Positions 10,911 to 59,038 are shown, numbered from the stretch's first letter. The stretch: DNA of 64,000 bases from an uncultured Rickettsiales bacterium (GCA_964436045.1 CAYTBN010000029.1:22714-86713), one strand, 5' to 3'. The notes: a model not told the origin generated them from the sequence alone. Translations and numbers: made by a program.

Positions 10911-12950
10911 CTACGGAGTATTCGCGCGATCGCGCCGTGCTTGACGGCGGCGTTCGGCCTCCCGTTCGAGGAGCTCCACCAGCTCCGGTGGGGCGCCGTA
11001 GAAGCTGGCCCAGCGAGCCTGCGAACGCCAGAATACCGGTCCGCTGCGGGGTTCGGCGTCCGCCATCGCCTGGACCACCGCCACGGGCGGGGGGGCACCG
11101 CTGGGCGAGGCGACCGACCGCCGGATGGTGGCGCGGTCGACCGCCGCGCCCGCCGCGAGCAGCGCCTCGGCGGCCTCCCACTGGTCCCGCTCCAACGTCC
11201 GCCGCAGCGGCGTCCGTCCGTCCTCCAGGGGAGCGTTCGGATCGGCCCCACCTTCGAGCAGGGCCTTGATGTTGGCCAGGTTGTGTTGGCGAAGGGCCGT
11301 CTCCAGCGGACGGAGCCCGTCCGCGGACAGGATCTCCAGGTCAGCGCCCGCGGCGGCGAGGGCGGCGACGACGGTTCCCTGATCCTCCCAGGTGTCCTGG
11401 AGGGCCAGGTGGATCGCGGCGCTACCACCGGGATCGCGGGCGTCCGGATCCGCACCGTGGGCGGCGAGGAGCGGGATCATGTCGGCGTAACCGTTGGCCG
11501 CCGCGCCGTGGAGCGCGCGCTGGGCGGAGCGCTGGGGGCGGACGCTGTGGATCAGCAAGGTCTCGATGGACGTGGCCTGGCCCCGGCAGGCGGCGTCGAA
11601 TGCCAGCTCGTCGATCTTCTCGGGCCGGTTCGCCGCAACCCGCGGTAGGGCGGCGGCCATCACGTCGGGGTTGCCGGAATCGACCCCGATGGTGAGCACC
11701 GCCTCCCAGCGGGGTGCCGCCCGTCCCGGTGGGAGGGCGGTCATCAACATCTCCACCAGGTCGAGACGGCCCTGGTAGGCAGCCTCGTCCACCGGGTGGT
11801 AGTCGCCGTGTTGTCGGGGCACGGCTCCCCGTTCCAGCAGGAAGGCGACCATCTCCGCGTCCCCATCGGACACCGCCCTGGAGAGCAGGGTCCCGCCATG
11901 GCGCCGCTCCGTGGGCTGGCCGGGATCCATGCCCGCCTCGATCAGCTCGTCCAGCCCCTCCAGGTCCCGTACAGCCAGCAGGTCGAAGCCCAGGTCGACG
12001 AGATCAAATCCACCCTCGGCGAGCTGGGCGGCCAGGACCGGGTTCGTCGCCAGCCCGCCGCGGACCTCGTCCACCGACAGACGGGCGGGGGAGAGGTCGG
12101 GATTCAGGGTGAGCAGGCGTTGCATCCTGCGTTCGTCGGCCAGGGTCGCCGCCGGAACATCGCCGACCTGGCGCCCGGCACCCCGCTCGGCCAGCCCCTC
12201 CGCCCACTCCAGCTGATCGTGGGTGACCGCCACGTCGAAGGCGCCCTCGAGCGCCGACACCGGCATGCCCGCGGCCAGCAGCTCGTCCAGCACGCTGTGG
12301 TCCGCACCAAAACGCTCGCCAGCCGCCTCGGTCCATGTGATGTCGAGGCCGGTCAGATCCGGCTCCAGCGCCAGCAGCTGGGCGATGGTTCCGCCCTCGA
12401 AGGCGGCGGGCGGCAGGTGGGTCAGGCGCCGCTCGGCGCCCAGCTCGGCCAGGTGGCTCGCCCACGTCAGGTCGCCCCCTTCGGCAGCATCCTGGAACGC
12501 TCCGTCGAGGGTGCCGATCCCGGCGCCCCATTCGATCAGCAGGCCCATCAGCGCGGGGTCGCGGAGATCGGCCGCCAGTCGCAGCGGCGCCACCTGCCGG
12601 TACTCGACCTTGGCCTCGGTCAGCAGGTCCTCGTCCAGGATCGGGGTCAACAGCCACAGGCCGCCGGTGACCAGCGACATGATGGCCCCGGCGGCGTGGA
12701 GCTTGCGCCGGGTGTAGGCCACCGAGCAGGTGGCGTTGGGATTGGCGCCCCGCTCGAGCGTGCGACGGACGGCGGACAGGTCCGTACCCTTGGACAGCAG
12801 CGCATCACAGAGGTTGGCATGGGCGTTGGCGGATACCGCCGCCGGGATCTCGTCGTCCGCCACCGCGGCGTGCGGAGCGCAGAGGACCGCGGACGCCAGC
12901 AGACCCAGGATCAGGATTCGCACGGTGCGGCCGCCAGTTACGGGAGACAC
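10911..12950 (-). CDS. secreted ankyrin-repeat protein
   Basis: Multiple ANK-like units (GADPDARDPGGSAAIHLAL, GADPNAPLEDGRTPLRRTL). N-terminal signal peptide. The start is GTG at 12950 or GTG near 12923 (uncertain). Confidence 0.7.
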   Translation of the reverse strand: MSPVTGGRTVRILILGLLASAVLCAPHAAVADDEIPAAVSANAHANLCDALLSKGTDLSAVRRTLERGANPNATCSVAYTRRKLHAAGAIMSLVTGGLWLLTPILDEDLLTEAKVEYRQVAPLRLAADLRDPALMGLLIEWGAGIGTLDGAFQDAAEGGDLTWASHLAELGAERRLTHLPPAAFEGGTIAQLLALEPDLTGLDITWTEAAGERFGADHSVLDELLAAGMPVSALEGAFDVAVTHDQLEWAEGLAERGAGRQVGDVPAATLADERRMQRLLTLNPDLSPARLSVDEVRGGLATNPVLAAQLAEGGFDLVDLGFDLLAVRDLEGLDELIEAGMDPGQPTERRHGGTLLSRAVSDGDAEMVAFLLERGAVPRQHGDYHPVDEAAYQGRLDLVEMLMTALPPGRAAPRWEAVLTIGVDSGNPDVMAAALPRVAANRPEKIDELAFDAACRGQATSIETLLIHSVRPQRSAQRALHGAAANGYADMIPLLAAHGADPDARDPGGSAAIHLALQDTWEDQGTVVAALAAAGADLEILSADGLRPLETALRQHNLANIKALLEGGADPNAPLEDGRTPLRRTLERDQWEAAEALLAAGAAVDRATIRRSVASPSGAPPPVAVVQAMADAEPRSGPVFWRSQARWASFYGAPPELVELLEREAERRRQARRDRANTP

Positions 12951-15571
12951 GCGGCCAGGGAGCAGCCGTTCTCCTCGAGCACCTCACCCAGGGCGTTGTC
13001 GGTGAAGGTGTTGCCCGAGCAGTCGGCGATGCTCACGCCAGCTGCCGCGCAGGCGAGCCCGTAACCGCCGTTACCCTCGAAGGTGTTGCCGCTGATATCG
13101 CCGGTCACGGTGCCCGCGAGCCAGATTCCGTGGCCCGTGTTGGAGGAGATCGCCACGTTGTCAGCGACGTTGAGGAGTATCGCCCCGGAGGTACCATCGA
13201 TCTCCAGGCCGTTCTCGCCGGCGCCGCTGAGGTCGCAGCCGACGATCTCCGCGGTGTTGTCGGCCCCGCTCCCCAGGACCCGGATCCCGCTGCCCGCGGC
13301 CCCGGCGACGTCGACGCCCTCGACAGAGGACGCCAGCACGCCGCTCAGCTGGATCGCCGGGCCGGCCTGACAGCTGTCGATGGTGGTAGTGCCGCCGATG
13401 GAGACGTCGCCCCATGACGAGATGGCGATCGGGGTGCTCGTCGCGCCCAGGAAGGAGTTGTCGTCGGCCACCAGCGTCTCGTCGCCCGGCGTGCTTCCGC
13501 TCAGACTCATCGGGGTGGCTACGCCGTCGAAGGTGTTGTCCGAGATCACCAGATCACCCGCGTATGCGGACACCGAAAATCCGGTGGCGTTGCCGTTGAA
13601 CTCGTTGTCCTCGTAGGTCGCGGTGGCAGTCATCAGCGACACATCCGTCGCGTAGAGCTGGATTGCGGTACCCGCGTTGTTGAAGGTGTTTCCCGACACG
13701 GTCCCGTAGTAGGTGCTGCCATAGAGGGCGGAGCCGCTGAGGCCGTCGAAGGTGTTGCCGCTGAACACCGCATCGCTGGTGTAACCGTAGACGGCTGTCC
13801 AGCTGTGGTCGCCGAAGTGGTTGTCCTCCACGTAGATCGGGAAACCGGTGGCGCTGTCGCCGCGGGCGAACACACCGGCGTAGTTGTCCGACAGGTCCGA
13901 GCCAGCGACGGTGACTGCGGACTCCGTGATGTAGACGCCGTAGTAGTCGCTGCCGGTCAGCGTGCTATCGGTGACCGACCCCTGCGAGTCGGTGTACTGG
14001 ATCGCCATGCCGCCGGTCTCCCACTGGTCCACCTCCTCCCAGTCTTCGGGGAGGACGCCGGCCTGGGCGTTCTCGAAGGTGCAGCCCACGTAGTCGATGG
14101 CCGAGGTGCGGGCGTCGATGCCGTAGATGAAGGTGTCGTGGGCGTACAGATTGGTGAAGGTGCCCGCGGAGCCACCGATGTAGCCGGCCCACAGGCGGGT
14201 GTCGTAGACCTCGTCGTCCACCGAGGTGAACTCCGAGTCCTGGATGAAGAACCCGAGCACGTCGATGTCGTGGATCACGTTGCCGCTCATCTGCAGGTCG
14301 ACGATGTCGAACAGGCCGACGGCCATGCCGCTGTCGTAGGTGTTGGCCTGGGGCTGCTCGCCACTCCACTGCAGGCCGTTCACCTCGTTGTCGGTGAAGG
14401 TGACCTGGTCGAGCCCCTGGACATACAGGCCGTACAGCATCCCGTCGCGAATCGTGTTGCGCGCGACGGTGGCGGTGCCGCCGAACGGGCCATCGGCGTC
14501 GAGGTAGGGGTACTGCACGTACATGCTGAACTGTTGGTACCCCTCGACCACGTTGTCCTCGACGGTCAGCGTGGCGTCGTCGTTGGCGACCATGATCCCG
14601 TAGGAGTTGCCGTAGGCCGCGTTGGTGGTGGTGACCGTGTTGCGCGAGACCTCGGAGTCCTGACCGATCACGTAGATCCCGTAGCCGCTGACCTGGGACA
14701 GGTAGTTGTCGGTGATCGTCGAGAACATCTCCTCGCCACCGATGATGCCGACGACACCGTTGGACGACTCCTCGATCGAGCTGTTGGTGATCGCCAGATC
14801 GCTGTCGAAGGTGTAGGCGGCAACCCGCTGGCAGAAGCTCATCTGCACCGTATCCATGGAGATGACGCCGGTGGAGTCCTCGGCGTACACGCAGGTGCCG
14901 TCGTAGTCGTCGCTCTCGGTGGGTACCAGGACTCCGGAGATGGCGGTGGTGGAGATGTCGGCCGACGAGTCCGCCAGCTTGAGGCCGTAGCCGGTGTTGT
15001 CTAGCAGCTGGGAGCCGGACAGGGTCAGCTGGCTGCCCTCGGCCTGGATCGCTCCGGCCGGGTTCTGGGCCAGCAGCAGGTTCTGCAAGGTGACCTGACT
15101 GCCGTCGAGGGCGATCGCGAACTGGCCGGCCTCCTCGATGATCAGGTCGTCGAGGACCACGTTGGTCGCGTCGTAGACCGCCACCCCGTTGCGGGTGCTC
15201 TGGACCGACAGGTGGGCGATGGTGACGTCGCTGGAGGTGACCGAGATTCCCATCTCGTTGACGTCACCGATGATCACCGTCTGAGACCTGCCCGCGCCCA
15301 GCAGGGTGACCGGCTTCTCGATGGTGACCGAGCCCTCGAATTCGCCCTCGCACAGGGTGATGTTGTCCCCTTCGACGGACACCCACAGCGCGTCGGCCAG
15401 GTTCGCGTAGCCGGGTTCCACCCCGTTGACCAGGATGCAGCCTTCCGCGTACTCGGTGACATCGTCGTCGTCGCCCACGGCCGAGTCGTCGTCGTCGTCG
15501 GTGGGGCAACCCAGCGGGGCCAGCCCCAGGGCGGCAGCCAGGATCCACTGGTAGTGCGTGCGTGCGCGCAT
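12938..15571 (-). CDS. right-handed parallel beta-helix lipoprotein, paralog 1
   Basis: ATG at 15571 with GGAGGAG RBS. Lipobox PLGC. D-rich linker. Long run of beta-helix repeats (NxxGxxV...). C-terminal EENGCSLAACLP. Confidence 0.8.
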   Translation of the reverse strand: MRARTHYQWILAAALGLAPLGCPTDDDDDSAVGDDDDVTEYAEGCILVNGVEPGYANLADALWVSVEGDNITLCEGEFEGSVTIEKPVTLLGAGRSQTVIIGDVNEMGISVTSSDVTIAHLSVQSTRNGVAVYDATNVVLDDLIIEEAGQFAIALDGSQVTLQNLLLAQNPAGAIQAEGSQLTLSGSQLLDNTGYGLKLADSSADISTTAISGVLVPTESDDYDGTCVYAEDSTGVISMDTVQMSFCQRVAAYTFDSDLAITNSSIEESSNGVVGIIGGEEMFSTITDNYLSQVSGYGIYVIGQDSEVSRNTVTTTNAAYGNSYGIMVANDDATLTVEDNVVEGYQQFSMYVQYPYLDADGPFGGTATVARNTIRDGMLYGLYVQGLDQVTFTDNEVNGLQWSGEQPQANTYDSGMAVGLFDIVDLQMSGNVIHDIDVLGFFIQDSEFTSVDDEVYDTRLWAGYIGGSAGTFTNLYAHDTFIYGIDARTSAIDYVGCTFENAQAGVLPEDWEEVDQWETGGMAIQYTDSQGSVTDSTLTGSDYYGVYITESAVTVAGSDLSDNYAGVFARGDSATGFPIYVEDNHFGDHSWTAVYGYTSDAVFSGNTFDGLSGSALYGSTYYGTVSGNTFNNAGTAIQLYATDVSLMTATATYEDNEFNGNATGFSVSAYAGDLVISDNTFDGVATPMSLSGSTPGDETLVADDNSFLGATSTPIAISSWGDVSIGGTTTIDSCQAGPAIQLSGVLASSVEGVDVAGAAGSGIRVLGSGADNTAEIVGCDLSGAGENGLEIDGTSGAILLNVADNVAISSNTGHGIWLAGTVTGDISGNTFEGNGGYGLACAAAGVSIADCSGNTFTDNALGEVLEENGCSLAACLP

Positions 15572-15637
15572 GGTCTCCTCCGAGATCCGCAGCATAGCCG
15601 GATTTGCTGAGACGGGTAGAGGGTCAGGGCCGGGCGG

Positions 15638-18115
15638 TCACTCCGCGAGGCAACCCAGGACGCAGCCGTTCTCCTCCTTGAGATCGCTCACCCCGTTGCC
15701 CGCCATGGTGTTGGCGCAGGAGTCGAGGACGACGTCGGGGCCGTCGCAGGAGATGCCGTACTCGGCGTTGCCGGCGATGGTGTTGCCGGTGAGCGATCCG
15801 GTGACGGCCCCCTCCAGCCGGACTCCGTTGGTGGCGCCCTGGGAGAAGGCCAGGTTGTCGTTGATCGTGACCGAGGAGCTGGAGATCCGCAGGTTGTCGG
15901 CCAGCGATCCGGTCAGGGAGCAGCCGGTGACGGAGAGGGTCGAGCCGTCCAGGACCATTCCCGGGCCGCTGCTGCCAGTGACGGTCAGGCCCTCGACGGT
16001 GCCTTCGACCTGCTGCAGCTGAACCGCGGGGTATCCGCCGTCGATCCCGTCGACGGTGTTACCGCCGCTGATCTCGAGGTCGACGCCGAAGCCGTACACG
16101 GCGCTGTTGGCCAGGTCGTAAAAGGTGTTGTCGCGCAGCTCCACCAGCGCCCCGTCCACGTCGTAATCGGCGGCGTAGATCCCGTACCCATCCGAGCCGT
16201 AGCCGCTGTAGTCGATGGTCGACGAGAACGTGTTGTTCTCGATGTGGACCGTGCGGGCCAGGTAGGTGGACCGCACCCCATTGCCCACCTCGCTGAACGT
16301 GTTGTCCTCGATGGTGAGGTCGCCGATCTGTTCGTCGGCGTCGCTGGACCATAGGTAGATCGCGTCCTCGACGTCGCGGAACTCGTTCCCGACGATGGTC
16401 CCGAACGGATAAAAAGCGTAGAGACCGTAGGCCGTGTCCCCCGTGAGAAGGCTGTCCTGCAGCTGGATGTCGGTGGACTGCAGCGTGATGTGGAACGAGT
16501 CGTTGTCGGTCAGGGTGCAGCCGACGAGGCTGGCCTGGGATTCGGTGAACGACAGCCCGGTTCCCGAGTACTCGTAAGGCTCGGGATCCTCCCACAGCTC
16601 CGGCGGCACTGCGGAGACCGTGTCGATCACGGTCGCGAACTCGAAGGTCACGTCGGCGGTGCGGACGTCGGCGCCTGTGATTGCGTTTCGTTCCAGGGAG
16701 AGCCCGGTGAAGGTGCCCGCCGATTCGCCGATGTACAGGCCCCACAGGTGGTTGTCGGTGACCGCGTCGTCGATGGACGTGAAGTTGGACTCCTGCAGGA
16801 ACACCCCGACCACATCCACATCGAACACCAGATTGTCCGCCATCGTCAGCTCGTCGATGGTCCAGAGGCTCACGCCAAACCCGTCACCGTAGGCGCCGTT
16901 GGAGAGTGACCCGCTCCACCGGATGCCGTGAACGTCGTTGCCCTGGAGGTCGGCGCTGTCCAGGTCGGTGACCAGCATGCCGTACAGGTTCACGTCGGCC
17001 ACCGTGTTGCCGTGGATGGTGGCGTTGCCTCCGGTGGGTGCAGGATCTGTGAAGGGGTACTGGACCCAGATGCCCCCGCGCCCGTAGCCGCTGACCTCGT
17101 TGTCGTTGACGATGAAGGTCCCGTCTGTCTGACCAACCGCGATGCCGTAGGTGTTGTCGCCGGGGTCGGTCACGGTCACCGTGTTGCCCTCGACCGTCGC
17201 CGCCTGGTCCGCCATCAGGACTCCGAACAGGGGACACTCGTCGATGGTGTTGCCCGAGACCATGCTGGCGCCGGCCTCGCCCGGCCCCAGGGCGGCGATC
17301 CCGTTGGCGCAGCTGGAGATCGCGGAGTTGGTCACCTCGAGATCGGCGTTGATGCCGTAGACCCCGACCCGGTTGCAGCCATCGAGGGTGACGCCGTCGA
17401 CCGAGATCGGACCGTGTGCGTCCCGGGCCAGGATGCAGGTGCCGTCGTCCTCGCCCGGCTCGTCCTGGAGCGTGATGCCGGCGATCTCCGTGTCGACGAT
17501 CACCGCGTCCGAGTCGACCATGCGGATGCCGTAACCCGCGATGTCATCGATGGTGCAGCCGTCGACCTCGAGGCTCGAGTCGCTCGCATCGATGGCGGCG
17601 AAGGGGTGAACGGCCAGGGTGGAGTCGGCGATGCGAACCTGGCTGCCGTCGACCTGGATGCCGACCTGGCCGCTGTCGCTGACGATCAGGTCTTCGAGGA
17701 GTACGTCGGTCGCGTCCTCCACCGCGATGCCGTTGCGCGTGCTGGACACGGTGAATCCGGACAGCGTCACCCCCGCGGTCAGGCGGATGGTCACGCCCAT
17801 CTCGTTGACGTCGCCCTCGATGATGGTGGTCTCCGGTGCGGCGCCGAGGATCGTCAGGTCGTTCTCGATGACCACCGAGCCGCTGTAGGTGCCCTCGCAG
17901 ACCGAGATCACGTCGCCTTCGCCAGCGGCGTTGATCGCGTCCTGCAGGTGGGCAAAACCGGGAACCGCTCCGTTGACGGTGATGCAACCCGCCTCGGCGG
18001 TGTCATCGTCGTCGCCCGTGGTGTCGTCGTCGTCGCCCGCCTCGGAATCGCAGCCAGCGGGGATCAGCAGCAGCGCGACGCAGAGCGCCAGCGCAAGGAT
18101 CTCGGGGCGATGCAT
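15638..18115 (-). CDS. right-handed parallel beta-helix lipoprotein, paralog 2
   Basis: ATG start. Lipobox PAGC. D-rich linker. Same architecture and C-terminal motif (EENGCVLGCLAE) as 12938..15571. Confidence 0.8.
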   Translation of the reverse strand: MHRPEILALALCVALLLIPAGCDSEAGDDDDTTGDDDDTAEAGCITVNGAVPGFAHLQDAINAAGEGDVISVCEGTYSGSVVIENDLTILGAAPETTIIEGDVNEMGVTIRLTAGVTLSGFTVSSTRNGIAVEDATDVLLEDLIVSDSGQVGIQVDGSQVRIADSTLAVHPFAAIDASDSSLEVDGCTIDDIAGYGIRMVDSDAVIVDTEIAGITLQDEPGEDDGTCILARDAHGPISVDGVTLDGCNRVGVYGINADLEVTNSAISSCANGIAALGPGEAGASMVSGNTIDECPLFGVLMADQAATVEGNTVTVTDPGDNTYGIAVGQTDGTFIVNDNEVSGYGRGGIWVQYPFTDPAPTGGNATIHGNTVADVNLYGMLVTDLDSADLQGNDVHGIRWSGSLSNGAYGDGFGVSLWTIDELTMADNLVFDVDVVGVFLQESNFTSIDDAVTDNHLWGLYIGESAGTFTGLSLERNAITGADVRTADVTFEFATVIDTVSAVPPELWEDPEPYEYSGTGLSFTESQASLVGCTLTDNDSFHITLQSTDIQLQDSLLTGDTAYGLYAFYPFGTIVGNEFRDVEDAIYLWSSDADEQIGDLTIEDNTFSEVGNGVRSTYLARTVHIENNTFSSTIDYSGYGSDGYGIYAADYDVDGALVELRDNTFYDLANSAVYGFGVDLEISGGNTVDGIDGGYPAVQLQQVEGTVEGLTVTGSSGPGMVLDGSTLSVTGCSLTGSLADNLRISSSSVTINDNLAFSQGATNGVRLEGAVTGSLTGNTIAGNAEYGISCDGPDVVLDSCANTMAGNGVSDLKEENGCVLGCLAE

Positions 18116-18201
18116 GGGTCCTCCCGATGGCCAGCATACCCGAGCCCCGCCTCGGCGGTGCAGCGCAGCCGCAGCTCAGGGGAGCCGGTTCATGCGAGCT
18201 C

Positions 18202-21633: not shown

Positions 21634-22770
21634 GTGACCTCCCCCTCCCCAGGCACCGAACTCGAGGACTTCCTGGCCCAGATCGCGGCCGTCGATCCGC
21701 CGCGAGCTTCCGGGCGTTGCACCCTGGATCTGCCGGGAATCTTGCCGCGGAAGGGACTGCTGGCCATCGGCAGGCAGCGGGCACGGTTCCTCCAGCAAGA
21801 TCCCTTCGGCGTGACCGTGGCCCGGGACTGGGACGTCTCGACCCTCCGCGGCGCCGAGCTCGGCGATGACCCGCGGAGACGGTGGGTCCGCTTCCGGACG
21901 CCCGAGGGTGATGTCGAGGCCACCGGCTTCGAGGACGCCGCCGCCGCCGAGGCCCTGTGGTCGGCGCTGGTCGCGGCGCGCCACCCGGGCGAGTCCGCGG
22001 CGGACAGCACATCCGCCGGGGCCGACATGTTCCAGCCCGGGGGTCCCGCGCCGACGACCTCCAGGACGCCACCGCCCACCGCGCGACTCGCGGCGGTGGC
22101 GGGTGTCCTCTGCCTGACGGCGGCGGGCGGCGTGGTCGGATACCTGATGATGGACGCTCCCCCGACTCCGGAGCCCGTGGTCCTGGCTGCCGTGGCGGAA
22201 CCCGCGAAGCCCGCCGCCCCCGACGGTCTCAAGGGGCTCGGCTTTGGCCAGACCATGGATCAGGTCCGCGGCGGAATGCCCGAGATGCAGTCCGCGGTCC
22301 GGGGGCCGGCGGAGGCGGTCTCACCTGCGTTCTCGCTGGATGACGCCCTGGCCATCGGGATGCCCGGGACCTTCGTGTCGGTGACCGTGCCGGGGGAGGT
22401 GTGGGTCGTCGACACCTCCATCGGGACCGTTCCGGCGAGCTGCGAGCTGCACTTCGCGGTGGACGACGGGCTGTCTCGAATGCGGTGTCAGCTCGATCCG
22501 CTGCCCTCCCGTGAGCGGCACGTGTCGGCCGAGACGGGGTTGGTGGCGACGCTGACCTTCCGCTACGGTCCGCCCTCCACCGCGACCGAGGAGATGGACA
22601 AGTTCCTCGAGGACAGTGCATTCCGGGTCGTGGATCTGGATAGCGCCAACGGGACCTTTGTCGACGAGGCTCGCGTCGACGGCTCGATCCGGCTTCCAAG
22701 CAGCTGCCGGCTGCGCTTCGGTCCCCGCACGGTGGTGCAGTTCAGCGCCGTCGACGAGATGGGCTCCTAG
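21634..22770 (+). CDS. membrane-anchored protein with C-terminal FHA domain (ends at in-frame TAG)
   Basis: GTG start 60 nt after the previous stop. One TM helix (LAAVAGVLCLTAAGGVVGYLMM). C-terminal FHA-like segment (FRVVDLDSANGTFVDEARVDG..LRFG). TAG stop at 22768. Confidence 0.65.
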   Translation: MTSPSPGTELEDFLAQIAAVDPPRASGRCTLDLPGILPRKGLLAIGRQRARFLQQDPFGVTVARDWDVSTLRGAELGDDPRRRWVRFRTPEGDVEATGFEDAAAAEALWSALVAARHPGESAADSTSAGADMFQPGGPAPTTSRTPPPTARLAAVAGVLCLTAAGGVVGYLMMDAPPTPEPVVLAAVAEPAKPAAPDGLKGLGFGQTMDQVRGGMPEMQSAVRGPAEAVSPAFSLDDALAIGMPGTFVSVTVPGEVWVVDTSIGTVPASCELHFAVDDGLSRMRCQLDPLPSRERHVSAETGLVATLTFRYGPPSTATEEMDKFLEDSAFRVVDLDSANGTFVDEARVDGSIRLPSSCRLRFGPRTVVQFSAVDEMGS

Positions 22771-22800
22771 GCGTTCGAGCGGCTGCGGCGCGCCCTGTTC

Positions 22801-23349
22801 ATGGATCCGCTGACCGGATCGGGCAACCGGACCTTCCTGGACCTGCGGATGCGGGAGGAGATCTCCTTCGGCCGCCGCCACGGTCAGACCATCGCGGTGA
22901 TGCTGGCTGACCTGGACCACTTCAAGCTGATCAACGATCGCTTCGGCCACGTGGTCGGTGACCGGTTCCTCAAGCGCATCGGCCAGATCCTGGCGGACGT
23001 CGTCCGGGTCGAGGACTCGGTCTACCGATACGGCGGTGAGGAATTTTGCGTCCTGGTCCGGGGAATCGGGCACGACGGCCTGGTCCGGATGGCCGAGCGG
23101 ATCCGGGTGGCCATCGAGGCCTTCGAGATGCCCGTGTCCGACGAGGTGGCGAAGCTGACGGTCAGCCTGGGCATCGCGAGCCTGGTCCCCGGCGAGGACG
23201 AACCGGAGGGCAGCACCCTGGTGGTGGAAATGGAAGAGGAGCCTGTGGACGTGGCCAGCCAGCTCATCCGCCGGGCCGACGCAGCCCTCTACCTGGCCAA
23301 AGGGCGGGGACGCAACTGCGTCGAAGTCTACTCCGAGGATGGCCGCTGA
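22801..23349 (+). CDS. GGDEF-domain diguanylate cyclase (stand-alone domain)
   Basis: DPLTGSGNRTF start of the domain. Active-site motif RYGGEEF. Same reading frame as 21634..22770. Confidence 0.8.
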   Translation: MDPLTGSGNRTFLDLRMREEISFGRRHGQTIAVMLADLDHFKLINDRFGHVVGDRFLKRIGQILADVVRVEDSVYRYGGEEFCVLVRGIGHDGLVRMAERIRVAIEAFEMPVSDEVAKLTVSLGIASLVPGEDEPEGSTLVVEMEEEPVDVASQLIRRADAALYLAKGRGRNCVEVYSEDGR

Positions 23350-23469
23350 TCTCGTCTCCCTGATGGTGCCCGCGGGCCTGATCGGGCTGGCGGTGGTGTT
23401 CCCGATCGTGTTCTCGATCAATGCTTCGGTGATCGGCGCGAACCAGGATGGATGAAGGAGGACGGCAGC

Positions 23470-24390
23470 ATGACACGGCGCATCTGGATCGGTCTCGCGG
23501 CGATGGCGCTGCTGGCGGGGACGGGCTGTCCGAAGAGCGACGACGACGACAGTACGGGCGACGACGACACCACCAGCTCGGATGACGACGACGCGACGGG
23601 TGATGACGACACGACCGGGGACGACGACGCCACCGGGGATGACGACGACGCCACCGGGGACGACGACACCAGCGGCGACGACGGGGACGGCTACACGGTC
23701 TGCGAGGACTGCGACGACGGCGACCCGCTGGTCAGCCCTGGGGAGGCCGAGGCCCTCTGCAACGGGGTGGACGACGACTGCGATCCGGCCACCGACGATG
23801 CCCCCGACGACGACGGCGACGGCGCGACGGTCTGCGACGACTGCGACGACGACGACGGGTCACTGAACCTGGACGACGCGGACGGCGACGGCTGGACCAC
23901 CTGCGACGGCGATTGCGATGACGGCGATCCGGACCTGGAGCCCGCCGACCTGGACGGGGACGGCTACAGCCCCTGCGACGACGACTGCGATGACGACGAC
24001 GTCGACCTGGACCCCGCCGACGCGGACGGGGACGGCTGGTCCAGCTGCGACGGGGACTGTGACGACGCGAACGAGGGCTTCTCGATCAACTGCGAGGACC
24101 TGAACTGCGACGGCGACGGCTTGATCCACACCGTCCCCGACGGCTGCATGCACGACGGCGGCGTCAACGCGGGCGGGGACAGCCTGGAGGTCTACTGTTA
24201 CTGGGGGGTGGCCCGGTTCTGCCTGTCCGGAGAGTCTTGCCAGTGGCGCAGCGGCCAGCCGGGGAGCGACGACGGCACCACCTGCGAGCGCGCTGGCCTG
24301 ACCAGCGACTACATGGCCAACGCCTGGTGCGACTACTACGACGGCCACGCCGATTACAACTGCACCACCGCCGAGGACATCTACTTCTAG
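23470..24390 (+). CDS. Cys/Asp-rich lipoprotein with MopE-like putative metal-binding repeats
   Basis: ATG at 23470 with GGAGGA RBS. Lipobox LAGTGC. Long D-rich linker. Repeated DCDDGDP..GxxExxCxGxDDDCD units. Confidence 0.75.
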   Translation: MTRRIWIGLAAMALLAGTGCPKSDDDDSTGDDDTTSSDDDDATGDDDTTGDDDATGDDDDATGDDDTSGDDGDGYTVCEDCDDGDPLVSPGEAEALCNGVDDDCDPATDDAPDDDGDGATVCDDCDDDDGSLNLDDADGDGWTTCDGDCDDGDPDLEPADLDGDGYSPCDDDCDDDDVDLDPADADGDGWSSCDGDCDDANEGFSINCEDLNCDGDGLIHTVPDGCMHDGGVNAGGDSLEVYCYWGVARFCLSGESCQWRSGQPGSDDGTTCERAGLTSDYMANAWCDYYDGHADYNCTTAEDIYF

Positions 24391-29906: not shown

Positions 29907-32900
29907 CTACTCCACGATCACCTTGTCCGTCGACGTCCGGCCGAAGGTCTCGGGATGGTACATCTCCTCGGCCTTGGTGGGGGGCACGACGAACTCGCCG
30001 GGGGTGGTGGCGCGGGCGACGTAGGTGTACTCGTGGACGCCGTCCCACAGCAGGGAGGCGAAGGCTTCCACGCGCTCGTCGCGCATGTTCTCGTGCTCGT
30101 ACCAGGTGCGCCACCACCACCAGTAGCGGTCGCCCTGGTTGGCGGAGGGATCGGCCGGCAGGGTGCCGGTGACGGCCAGGTCCGGGTTGACCGGTTCGAG
30201 TCCGGCGGGCAGCGGGTCGACCAGGGCCACGTGGTAGCGCCGCATGGGGGCGACCATGGTCAGCCGGATCCGCACGCGGGCGCCGGCCTTGATGCGCCAG
30301 GTTCCGTCCTCGTCCCGCGAGACGTCCGCGTCATCGTCGATGGGCTCGTAGGCTCGCTCGACCGCGAAGCCGTAGTCGGCGGCCTCCAGGTCCAGATCCC
30401 GCGGCGCGTAGTTCATGCCGATGCGGTAGTACATCCGCCCGTCGCCGTCCTTCTGCAGCAGCAGGTTCTGGTCGCCGGGGGTCTCGGTCAGGTAGGCCAT
30501 CGGCACGTCGATGTGGGCCCGCTCGGTGGTCCGACCGCGGAACTCGTGCTCGCCGGCGAAGGTGTCGCCCAACCAGGCCCGTGCCACGAAGTCCGGCGTG
30601 GTGCCTTCGTAGACGTGGAAGTAGCGGTCCAGGGCCAGCAGGATGAAGCAGTTCTCCTGGGTGTTGGACCACTTGCCCCGCTTGCGATGGTCCAGCAGGC
30701 CGGCCACCAGCTTGGGGATCACGTCGTTGTCGGTCTCCACTCCGATCAGCGCCTCGAGCAGGATGCCGTCGGCGCGGCGGTCCGAGTGCAGCAGCACGTG
30801 GGCGCCGTCGCTGTAGGACGTGACGAAGTGGGCGCCGGCCGCGGTCTCGGTGACCCGGTTGCTCAGGTGGCGCAGGATGGCGTCCACCTGGGAGTCGTTC
30901 TTGCTCTGCAGGGTCGGCAGCAGCCAGCCCAGCGACTCCAGCGGCATCTCCTCGATGCCCCCGGCCTCCTTGATCAGCTTGCGCGCCTCGGCCTCGTCGG
31001 TGTCGTCCATCCGGTTGCGGACGTAGACGGCGTAGCTGCGGATGAAGCGCTTCGACTCCTCGGAGTACCAGTGGGGGATGTGGCGTTCGATGCGAGCCAG
31101 ATAGGTCTGCGCGTTCTGCAGCATCTGCTCGTCGACCTCGTAGCCCTTCGACCGGGCGCGGGTCAGCGCGTGGGCCACGTGGACCGTCAGGTAGGGCCAG
31201 CTCTCGTCACCCTTGCGCCAGAAGGACCAGCCGCCGTCGTGGTTCTGGCGGACCTTCAGCCGCTCCAGGTCCGCCGCGACCACCGCCTCCAGCTCCTCGG
31301 GGGACGGCATGCCGTCGGCCTCGAACGCCGTCAACACGTCTCGCAGGGCGGCGATGGCCAGCACCCGCGAGCTGATCTGCTCCTGACACTCGAAGGGGTA
31401 CTGCACCAGGTACAGCACCGCGTCGGTCAGGGCCTGCAGCTGGGTCGACGAGGTGGTGATCTCCAGGCCACCGAACTGGGGCCAGACCTCGCCCGGGGCC
31501 CGCACGGGCTGGACGATCACGCCGTCGTCGATCACGCCGTAGGTGGCGAAGGCCTCGGACGTGGCCGGTGTCCAGACCGGCAGCTCGAAGCTTGCCGCGT
31601 CGGCGAACGACCCGGTGGACGCCACCACCTGGAAGCGGGCCGTGCCCGCCATCTGGGCCGCGGCCGGGAAGCGGACCTCGACCCGGTCGTTGGCCGGGAT
31701 CTGGACCCGCCGGCCGCTCGCCACCGGCAGCCCGGTGCCCTCGCCGGGGATCGCCTGTTCCAGGGTGTCGGCCAGCGAGACGTTGGTCGCCCGCAGCACC
31801 AGCTCGACGGTCATCGGTCCATCGGTCTGGTTCTGCAGCACCACCGGCAGCTCGAAGCGGTCGCCGAAGTTGAGGAAACGCGGCGCCGACGGCCGGGTCA
31901 TCAGCGGCAGCCGGGCGGTGATCGACGACTCTCCCGAGCCGAACTGCTGGCCCCCGGCGACGGCCACGGCCATCACCCGGTAGCGGGTCAGCGAGTCCGG
32001 CAGCTTCAGGTCGACGCTGGCCTTGCCCTGGCCGTCGGTGGTCACCTCCGGCGCGAACAACGCCAGGGCGCGGAAGTCGGTGCGCATGGCGATGGGCGCC
32101 TCCTTGTCGCCGCCGCCCTTGCGCGCGGACTTCTTGGAGGCCGAAAGCGTCCGTCTTTCCTCCATGCCGGAGGCGTCGTCGTCGAACTCGTCCTCGGCCA
32201 GGCGGGCCGCACCCTCCATCGGGGCTGGCGGCATCGCGCCGAAGTCGGCGTTGAATAGGGGCATCGCACTCTGGGCCATCGCCCCGCCGGCAGACATGTT
32301 GGCCGCGGCCATCGCCGCCACCGCCTGGGGATCGGAGAGCAGCACCTGGTGGCGGGAGTGGTAGTCGGACACTCCGGCGCCGCGGGCCGTGTAGAACACG
32401 TCGATGGGGTTGGGTAGCTTGAAGCCGGTCAGCGCCAGCACCGATTCGTCCGCCACCACCAGCGCCACCTCGGCACCGGCCACCGGGTTGCCGGCGGCGT
32501 CGGTGACCAGCAGGTCGATGGCGGTCTCGGCGCCGGGCTCGGTCTTCGCCGCTCGCGGCGTCACCGCCACGTCGAGGGTGCGCTCCAGCGCCGGTACCTG
32601 GAACGTCAGGCTGCCGGTGGCGAAGGCCACCCGTTTCGGCACCCCCGCCATCGGTTCGCCCTGGTCGTCGGTACGCGTCGCCGCGCCCACGAGATCCACC
32701 TGGACCGTCACGTCCGGGACGTGCTCGTCGAGGATCGGGATCTCCAGGGTGGTGGTCGCCTCCTCCATCCGGAAGCGCTCCGTGCGCACCAGCCCCGAGC
32801 GGCGGATGGTCATCACACCCTCGGCCGGGAAGAAGGGGGCCTGGACGAGGATCTGGGCGGTGGTGCCAGGCTCGACGGTGTCGTTGGCCGGGATCAAGGT

Positions 32901-57170: not shown

Positions 57171-58163
57171 TCAGGAGACGAAGGTGACGGCCGCGCCCGG
57201 TCGCCGTCGGAAGCGGGTCGCTCCTCCCTTGGGCACCCGTTCCAGCAGGCGCTTTCCGTTGAGGCCGCCGTCGACCAGCGCCTTTCGTACCCGGTGGACC
57301 AGCAGGTTCAGGTCCCGCTTGTCCTTCTCGGGTTGCCCCGGCCAGACCTGGGAGATGAGCCACTCGTCGTCCAGGTAGTCCGTCTCCGTGTGCCCCGCTC
57401 GCCGGGTGAGCAGGGCAGCCACCAGGTCCGCCCGCAGCTCCGAGAGCCAGACCGTCACCTGGCCGGTCGGCATGCCCAGGTGCAGGCGCCCACCGCGGGG
57501 GAAGAACTGGAATTCCAGCCGGGACGGCAACGCGTCGGCGTCCTGCGCCACCGTGGTGGCTTGCGATCCGCCACCGATGGAGATCGCCGTCAGCTGCTCG
57601 CCGGCCAGCGAGAGCACGTCGCCGTGGATCAAGGGCTCGTACTCGCCCACCTCGATGGGTTCGCCGTTGCGCTCGACGGGGCACGCGGCCTCGACCAGCA
57701 GCTCGCCCTGGACCAGGCTCAGCTTGACCGCGGCCGGTGGCCAGGCCGGGATCGACAGGTCGTCCTCGGCGCTGCCGCCGATGGAGAACGGCGACTGGGC
57801 CACCCCGTACACCTGGCCGGCGCCGTCGTCCAGCAGCCACGCCGGAGGCAGCTCGCGGGCGGTTCCTCGCTCGATCACGACCGTCAGTTTTCGGCCCGGG
57901 ATCGAGACCCGATCCCCATCCGCCAGGCGGATCACGCCGTCGACCGGGGTGTCGTTGTGGCAGGTCGGGTTGAGTCCGGTGTGCATCAACTCGAGGCCGC
58001 CGCTGGTGGGTGCCACCAGCGCATGACGGCGGCTCGCCCCGGGATCGCGCGAGATGATCTCGCAGCGTTCCTCGCGGCCGAGGACCACGCCGCCGAAGCC
58101 GACGCGCACCCGGCGGCCGGCCTCGTCCGTGAGCCAGTATCGAATGGTCGTCCCCGTACTCAT
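57171..58163 (-). CDS. FHA-domain protein
   Basis: ATG at 58163 (alternative ATG at 58175). RVGFGGVVLGREERCEIISRDPGASRRHALV is an FHA core. Immediately upstream of the kinase gene. Confidence 0.7.
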   Translation of the reverse strand: MSTGTTIRYWLTDEAGRRVRVGFGGVVLGREERCEIISRDPGASRRHALVAPTSGGLELMHTGLNPTCHNDTPVDGVIRLADGDRVSIPGRKLTVVIERGTARELPPAWLLDDGAGQVYGVAQSPFSIGGSAEDDLSIPAWPPAAVKLSLVQGELLVEAACPVERNGEPIEVGEYEPLIHGDVLSLAGEQLTAISIGGGSQATTVAQDADALPSRLEFQFFPRGGRLHLGMPTGQVTVWLSELRADLVAALLTRRAGHTETDYLDDEWLISQVWPGQPEKDKRDLNLLVHRVRKALVDGGLNGKRLLERVPKGGATRFRRRPGAAVTFVS

Positions 58164-58909
58164 GGGGGGCAGCATACCCCGTCCCTGCGGCGGTCTGGAG
58201 AAGGGGCCAGGTAGATCACGTCCCCGGGCTCCCCCAGTTTGCGGCCGATGGCGGTGGTATCTACCGCCTCCAGTTCGTCGAAGACGCGCGCGAGGGTCGC
58301 GCGGAAGCGCTCGTTGGGGCCGGGACTCCAGACCGCCATCACGCCGCCGGGCCGCAGGGCAGCGAGGCAGTCGCGGACACCGTCCTCCTCGTACAGCGCC
58401 GCGTTGCCCTCGGCCGCCAGCCAGCCCGGACCGTTGTCCACGTCCAGCAGCAGCAGGTCGAACGCCCGGGGAGAGGAGCGCAGCAGGTCGTGCAGGTCCG
58501 CGACGCGGACGTCGACCCGCGGATCGTCCACGCCGCCGCCGTTGACGTCGGCGAAGTAGCGGCGATTCCACTCGACCATCCGGGCGCCGATCTCGGCCAC
58601 CACCACCCCGGCCACGCCGGGTAGATCGAGGGCGGCGCGCAGTGTGTGGCCGGCGCCGAGGCCGCCCACCAGCACCTGCAGCTCCGTCGCCGGTCCGCGA
58701 AGGCGCTCCAGGGCCATCTCGGCCATCGCCCGTTCGCTGTGGGCGCCGTGGGTCGCCATCAGGAAGTTGCCCCCCAGGCGGATCTCGTAGCCCACCTCGC
58801 CGGTCTCGGCGGTGTAGCGACGCAGGGTCAGCTCGCCCAGCGCGGTGTCGTCGCGGTCGACGTCCGCGTAGGTCAGCTTCACGGTCCCGATTCCGGATGG
58901 GAAGCCCAT
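58160..58909 (-). CDS. spermidine-synthase-like (polyamine aminopropyltransferase fold) protein
   Basis: LVVGGGLGAGHTLRAAL, LLLLDVDNGPGW and Rossmann-like MTase motifs. Start uncertain (ATG at 58909 or 58963). Confidence 0.6.
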   Translation of the reverse strand: MGFPSGIGTVKLTYADVDRDDTALGELTLRRYTAETGEVGYEIRLGGNFLMATHGAHSERAMAEMALERLRGPATELQVLVGGLGAGHTLRAALDLPGVAGVVVAEIGARMVEWNRRYFADVNGGGVDDPRVDVRVADLHDLLRSSPRAFDLLLLDVDNGPGWLAAEGNAALYEEDGVRDCLAALRPGGVMAVWSPGPNERFRATLARVFDELEAVDTTAIGRKLGEPGDVIYLAPSPDRRRDGVCCPP

Positions 58910-59038
58910 CCCGCCCTCCCACAACGTCCGCACGGTTGCGGCTCGCGCCGGGTAGGATAACAAGCGCTGCGTCAGGTATCAGGCGTCAGGCTTCGGGCGT
59001 CGGGCGAGAGGCCGGAGTCACACCGCCGGAGGTGCGGA

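Follow-up and report, generated by a model that had tools for sequence, protein, structure and literature searches.

Two reading frames for FHA and GGDEF domains as the probable remnant of a recently decayed cyclase gene

We have analysed two adjacent open reading frames, ORF1 and ORF2, within a 64,000-nucleotide stretch of DNA from an uncultured Rickettsiales bacterium (the window). Comparison with intact relatives indicates that the locus is very probably an ordinary, recently decayed remnant of an FHA-GGDEF gene, shaped by a deletion, a nonsense mutation and the loss of a neighbouring gene, rather than a case of recoding. The alignments show ORF1 to be chimeric: most of it comes from an unrelated orphan gene (gene A), and its final ~51 codons encode the end of the FHA domain of the FHA-GGDEF gene (gene B). 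The elements of the locus, all on the plus strand, are the following.

21634..22770 (+): ORF1, 378 aa, GTG start
21634..22614 (+): gene A remnant, the first ~327 of 419-425 codons, by similarity to P0002 and P0008
22606..22614 (+): deletion junction, the 9-mer CTCGAGGAC, placed by a three-way DNA alignment (window, L005, L002)
22615..22767 (+): C-terminal half of the gene B FHA domain (~51 codons), by Pfam (profile positions 29-67 of 67) and ortholog alignment
22768..22770 (+): TAG nonsense codon, within the linker between the FHA and GGDEF domains, by ortholog alignment
22771..22800 (+): former linker, ten codons AFERLRRALF, identical in P0003, P0005 and P0006
22801..23349 (+): ORF2, the orphaned GGDEF domain, 182 aa, ATG start; the start Met is a conserved internal Met of the orthologs
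23339..23455 (+): bestrophin-like relic, a 38-aa ORF, with homology confined to an island at 23369-23424

Conceptual translation of 21634-23349 gives a sole stop, the TAG at 22768-22770, followed by AFERLRRALF and then by MDPLTG, in agreement with the first-pass annotation, which had described two ORFs in the same frame, a single TAG and a stop-free stretch of 30 nt between them. A common frame is expected by chance for one in three co-directional neighbours, and the continuity of ORF1 and ORF2 rests not on it but on homology, since the half-FHA, the TAG, the linker and the GGDEF domain align colinearly and without gaps to single proteins of 333-335 aa. These orthologs conserve the linker as coding sequence, so that its earlier description as a natural linker was apt; in the window, its ten codons are now an untranslated spacer unless ribosomes read through the TAG.

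When the conceptually fused 571-aa sequence was used as a query against 5.8 billion protein clusters, the fused protein itself was not found among them and the matches fell into two classes: gene A proteins, which correspond to ORF1 residues ~1-327, and FHA-GGDEF proteins, which align to the ~51 residues at the end of ORF1 and to all that follows, the linker and then ORF2. Identities to the fused query were 85% for P0003, 73% for P0004 and 61-70% for P0005-P0007, with many further FHA-GGDEF matches; over 246 aligned columns, the segment of the window from the half-FHA to the GGDEF domain is about 90% identical to P0003. No intact gene B allele nearer than P0003 was found among the 5.8 billion clusters. 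In a scan of genome contigs with P0003, the closest among the matches listed was 41% identical (a Polyangiaceae MAG). Metagenome contigs gave 0 matches to a degenerate pattern over DEMG..AFERLRRALFMDP and 18 to a QFSAVDEMG pattern, none of the latter being related to P0002 or P0003 by tblastn.

Gene A and gene B are separate, adjacent and intact genes on five contigs (L001-L005), the flanking genes of which match those of the window. The order in these relatives is a nitroreductase gene (-), a gene for an 893-896-aa CarboxypepD_reg protein, gene A, a spacer of ~85 nt, gene B, a gene for a bestrophin-like protein of 259-264 aa, a MopE-repeat lipoprotein gene and a radical-SAM/SPASM gene (-). 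Gene B consists in them of an N-terminal tail, an FHA domain, a linker and a GGDEF domain, and syntenic, intact single ORFs of gene B are present on L001-L005 and L111-L114 (the proteins of the set, P0003-P0010, include the gene A protein P0008). Both flanking genes, that for the 896-aa protein and that for the radical-SAM protein, are intact in the window; the former has a dN/dS of 0.095 in the comparison with L005, and the product of the latter is 89% identical to that of L001. Further upstream, at 12938-18175 (-), two large tandem paralogous genes of the beta-helix type (NosD/Pel9A-like, ~877 and ~825 aa) are kept in all relatives of the locus.

The front part of ORF1 is 88% identical to P0002 (aa 1-330) and about 56-57% identical to P0008. 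In the relatives, intact gene A encodes a hypothetical protein of 419-425 aa (L001 1747-3024, L005 3174-4433); no Pfam family matches it, and the homology search retrieved only 3 clusters among 5.8 billion proteins. The more distant P0005 and P0006 lineages share the synteny of the locus but have no gene A there. Because of this absence and of the small number of clusters, gene A looks like a lineage-specific newcomer, inserted recently after the 896-aa gene and ahead of the cyclase gene. The TM helix of ORF1 lies in the gene A part, at 22087-22152, and the charges around it (two K/R before, three D/E after) suggest an N-in/C-out topology, so that the part following the helix would probably be located outside the cytoplasm. 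Branch dN/dS for the gene A part is ~0.28 in the window versus ~0.26 in L005, with no acceleration.

The first-pass annotation had assigned to ORF1 a TM helix plus a C-terminal FHA domain. The helix is there, but of the FHA domain only the C-terminal half is present: the match is limited to Pfam profile positions 29-67 of 67 (aa 327-363, 28 bits), as compared with positions 2-67 and 61-66 bits in the intact orthologs. The remnant keeps the NGT loop, at 22648-22656, and has lost by deletion the GR and SRxH motifs involved in binding of phosphothreonine. The missing N-terminal half was also sought in the other two frames of the ORF1 region and was not found; a frameshift as the cause of the half-domain was rejected, as neither of these frames encodes it. 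The product of ORF1 would thus consist of a truncated gene A protein followed by a 51-residue FHA scrap unable to fold, probably on the extracytoplasmic side. Elsewhere in the window, at 57924-58172 (-), an ORF of ~272 aa (58160-58978 region) contains another FHA-like stretch, with 33% identity to residues 34-117 of P0003; the genome therefore has other FHA proteins.

The DNA alignment places the point at which the two genes were joined. The window is colinear with gene A through ...TTCCTCGAGGAC and then with gene B from ...AGTGCATTCCGGGTCGTGGATCTGGATAGCGCCAACGGG (corresponding to DNAFQVVDLxSANG), gene B beginning at about codon 92. The 9-mer at the junction, CTCGAGGAC, is also found in gene A of L005, and its counterpart in gene B is CTCCAGGAC in L002 and CTGAAGAAC in L005. 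In L005, the gene A and gene B sites are 627 bp apart, that is, 3 x 209. The alignment shows, in the lineage of the window, a 627-bp deletion between two near-identical 9-mers, which fused the two stumps in frame; given the near identity of the 9-mers and a spacing that is a multiple of three, a microhomology-mediated deletion explains the in-frame chimera. The segment removed comprises ~95 codons at the 3' end of gene A, the intergenic promoter and ribosome-binding region (L005 has GAGGAGG just before the gene B ATG), and ~91 codons of gene B, which specify its N-terminal tail and the leading half of its FHA domain, GR and SRxH motifs included. Even with the TAG read through, the product would still be devoid of the phospho-Thr-binding half.

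The TAG has a simple origin when compared with the orthologs. In 7 of the 7 aligned orthologs, its column holds a sense residue: Q in P0003, E in P0004-P0007, and D in P0009 and P0010; at the DNA level, the codon at this position is GAG in L002. A single-base change would have sufficed to make the stop, most simply C>T from CAG, or else G>T from GAG. A recent nonsense mutation was one of the readings first put forward for this codon, and it is the one that the alignment favours, because every ortholog is one ORF with a sense codon there. The alignment with orthologs that had been proposed as a check thus gave a consistent answer, the gene B orthologs being single ORFs with a sense codon at 22768 and a conserved linker. 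In the sequence of events that we propose, a CAG-to-TAG mutation following the deletion would have severed the GGDEF half from what was left upstream.

Damage is also apparent downstream. The bestrophin-like gene lies directly after gene B in all syntenic relatives, and gene B and this gene are the conserved pair of the locus (the Pfam Bestrophin_2 match to the relatives' gene is borderline). Of this neighbour, the window retains a 56-bp island, which is identical to L001 4297-4352 at 19/21 aa and 52/56 nt (tblastn and blastn); around it, ~163 bp and ~594 bp are missing, one on each side. The alignment shows the bestrophin-like gene to have been erased by two further deletions, and the joint loss of the FHA-GGDEF and bestrophin-like genes hints that they work together in the intact relatives. 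The next gene, at 23452-24390, encodes an aspartate-rich lipoprotein with MopE repeats, which is 312 aa long in the window and 723-830 aa in the relatives (11 repeats in L001); its shortness is either a real contraction of the repeats or a collapse of tandem repeats in short-read assembly.

The same allele is found well beyond the window. The exact ORF2 protein is encoded on 17 contigs. Seven contigs (L006-L012) give gapless alignments with the window, 2.8-6.8 kb long and 99.8-100% identical; their sources are three NCBI metagenome assemblies, two Logan runs, one ENA assembly and an NCBI MAG that bears the name Myxococcota bacterium. Each shows 0-6 SNPs relative to the window, and both the junction and the TAG are free of them. 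A JGI contig (P0124) likewise carries the chimeric ORF1. In several metagenomes assembled independently, the allele is thus found in essentially clonal form. Variable sites in this population number 9 over as much as 6.8 kb, and ORF2 contains none of them, the contigs with ORF2 having been picked by exact protein identity.

What remains of gene B downstream of the stop is well preserved. As the first-pass annotation had stated, ORF2 holds a complete GGDEF domain with a DPLTG start and a GGEEF active site: it matches Pfam PF00990 at profile positions 3-160 of 161 (E=1.4e-40) and TIGR00254 with E=2.5e-45, and its motifs are found at 22804-22818 (DPLTG), 23005-23016 (the I-site, RVED) and 23032-23046 (GGEEF). 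It has no frameshift, no internal stop and no loss of catalytic or I-site residues, and the substitutions specific to the window are mostly conservative in the alignment (L>M, C>V, T>V, A>V). Signals for its expression are harder to identify. A promoter or ribosome-binding site belonging to the GGDEF ORF, which had been named beforehand as evidence against a split gene, was looked for: the 40 nt before the ATG at 22801 contain no GGAG, GAGG or AGGA, that is, no Shine-Dalgarno-like tetramer, and no sigma-70-like promoter was found for ORF2. No terminator was found either. The only plausible route of expression would be reinitiation after the TAG, 30 nt upstream. Since ORF2 has neither a Shine-Dalgarno motif nor a promoter and the dimerising domain has been lost, it is most likely silent or yields a trace-level product, and its intact motifs would reflect the recency of the events, not a retained function. 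When amino acid changes in the gene B remnant were polarised with P0004-P0007 as outgroups, 10 were specific to the lineage of the window and 3 to that of P0003 (13 informative sites, one-sided binomial p=0.046), an excess that may hint at relaxed constraint.

The same observations could be read as gene fission with retained function, in which the TAG would have freed a stand-alone GGDEF cyclase, translated by termination-reinitiation at the ATG 30 nt further on. We consider this unlikely, and the associated proposal, an unregulated, I-site-limited production of c-di-GMP from the gene A promoter, is equally so. Continued function of ORF2 is conceivable because the frame has no lesions, its motifs are intact and its substitutions are mostly conservative. 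In this regard, the GGDEF domain is complete, with DxLT, RxxD and GGEEF all in place, and no more lesions have accumulated in 182 codons; the start Met did not have to be created, as it is conserved in the orthologs; the stop falls exactly at the domain boundary, with a short gap to the start on one transcript; and several samples carry the allele in fixed form. As a rule, however, GGDEF domains on their own are monomers with weak activity, and the activity of the WspR GGDEF domain reportedly needed a GCN4 zipper (PDB 3I5C). The lack of a Shine-Dalgarno motif or promoter, the deletion of the putatively linked bestrophin-like gene downstream and the excess of lineage-specific substitutions all speak against fission, and variation within the population is too low to show purifying selection. 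Furthermore, the FHA dimer and the tail that drive activation of DgcB, an FHA-GGDEF cyclase, have been deleted (PMC6733907). Were an early fission nonetheless taking place, which we hold to be slightly less probable still, c-di-GMP output would no longer be governed by phospho-Thr but by the promoter that drives an orphan gene.

The view that an amber codon is the sole defect of an otherwise intact TM-FHA-GGDEF protein, as in the first-pass annotation, is highly improbable. It was correct in that the codons flanking the TAG were once part of one gene, and the half-FHA, the linker and the GGDEF domain are indeed colinear with single-ORF orthologs. It does not hold for ORF1 as the FHA-bearing N-terminus of that protein, for half of the FHA domain is missing and the TM part derives from another gene, which is separate in the relatives and absent at the P0005 and P0006 loci.

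Programmed readthrough or recoding of the TAG, giving one 571-residue protein, is less credible again. It had been suggested by the shared frame and by a spacer without stops, and finds no support in the rest of the evidence, which treats the TAG as an ordinary stop. This codon ends 8 of the 38 likely genes (high-GC3 ORFs) in the window; it aligns to a variable linker residue (Q, E or D), and the relatives have no TAG there. ARAGORN found no tRNA with a CUA anticodon (suppressor or Pyl) in the 64 kb, and no Rfam element was found in the same 64 kb. The readthrough product would join truncated gene A, half an FHA domain and a GGDEF domain, leaving the latter behind a probably extracytoplasmic domain, and such a fused protein is absent from the databases searched. 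As a separate observation, ARAGORN calls an 86-nt tRNA-Pro(GGG) at 30129-30214 (+), inside long high-GC3 ORFs of the minus strand; it is probably a false positive, as Rfam gives no tRNA there at gathering score. A sequencing or assembly artefact hiding intact genes, which the first-pass annotation had also considered and which is in principle open to short-read metagenome assemblies, where single-base errors and collapses happen, is excluded for practical purposes, with a probability as slight as that of readthrough, because the junction and the TAG are identical in seven further contigs of separate assemblies, from different assemblers and projects, and the junction is not a long repeat prone to collapse.

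The reading that we favour, that of a recently decayed FHA-GGDEF remnant, has consequences for annotation. Public records (NCBI, JGI) label ORF1 as 'FHA domain-containing protein' and ORF2 as 'GGDEF domain-containing protein'. These labels are misleading, the two ORFs being a chimeric stump and an orphaned domain, and counting them as signalling genes would overstate the organism's repertoire of c-di-GMP and Ser/Thr-phospho signalling. The locus also provides a natural example of how a microhomology deletion can yield an in-frame chimera that mimics a novel domain architecture.

The intact system from which the remnant derives resembles a well-characterised enzyme. DgcB (Bd0742) of Bdellovibrio bacteriovorus is an FHA-GGDEF diguanylate cyclase of known structure (PDB 6HBZ; Meek et al. 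2019, PMC6733907). Its FHA domain is a constitutive dimer, and activation involves the binding by this domain of a phosphorylated Thr in the enzyme's own N-terminal tail, the FHA-mediated dimer being needed as well (PMC6733907). P0003 aligns with 6hbz_A over the FHA and GGDEF domains alike (query 50-286, E=2.2e-25), and P0003-P0007 share with DgcB a tail of ~45 aa, a full FHA domain, a linker of ~20 aa and a GGDEF domain with GGEEF and RxxD; the tail of the orthologs carries a conserved Thr, within (I/V)T(S/R)(V/I). The DgcB-type FHA-GGDEF family is common in Myxococcota and Bdellovibrionota, and the gene ancestral to the window copy belonged to it as an ordinary member. The copy in the window keeps the linker, DxLT, RxxD and GGEEF. 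It differs from DgcB in having no tail and no FHA positions 1-28, in its fusion to an unrelated gene and in the TAG within the linker. Thus, of the defining features of the type, a complete FHA domain, the ligand tail and a single polypeptide are all lacking, and only the GGDEF domain with GGEEF and RxxD is present; because those three fail, we classify the copy as a decayed remnant. Having lost its ligand tail and, with it, the half of the FHA domain that does the binding, the sensor would be dead as a phospho-Thr-regulated cyclase: the structural loss is plain in the alignment, and the loss of phospho-Thr control would be its functional consequence.

The comparison with bacterial pseudogenes in general points in the same direction. 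Orthologs are intact at the syntenic position, and the lesions are reproduced in L006-L012. Like generic pseudogenes, the locus has several independent lesions in adjacent genes, which are fixed, and microhomology at the junction; it differs from them in that the deletion is in frame and leaves a long chimeric ORF, and in that the orphaned domain is still gene-like. Isolated GGDEF constructs (the WspR GGDEF domain, PDB 3I5B, and its GCN4 fusion, 3I5C) resemble ORF2 as domain-only proteins of ~180 aa. These are laboratory truncations, the latter with an added dimeriser, whereas ORF2 has neither a dimeriser nor an evident translation signal. All together, deletion by microhomology, nonsense mutation and co-loss of a neighbour are well-known types of event, and the locus involves no new mechanism.
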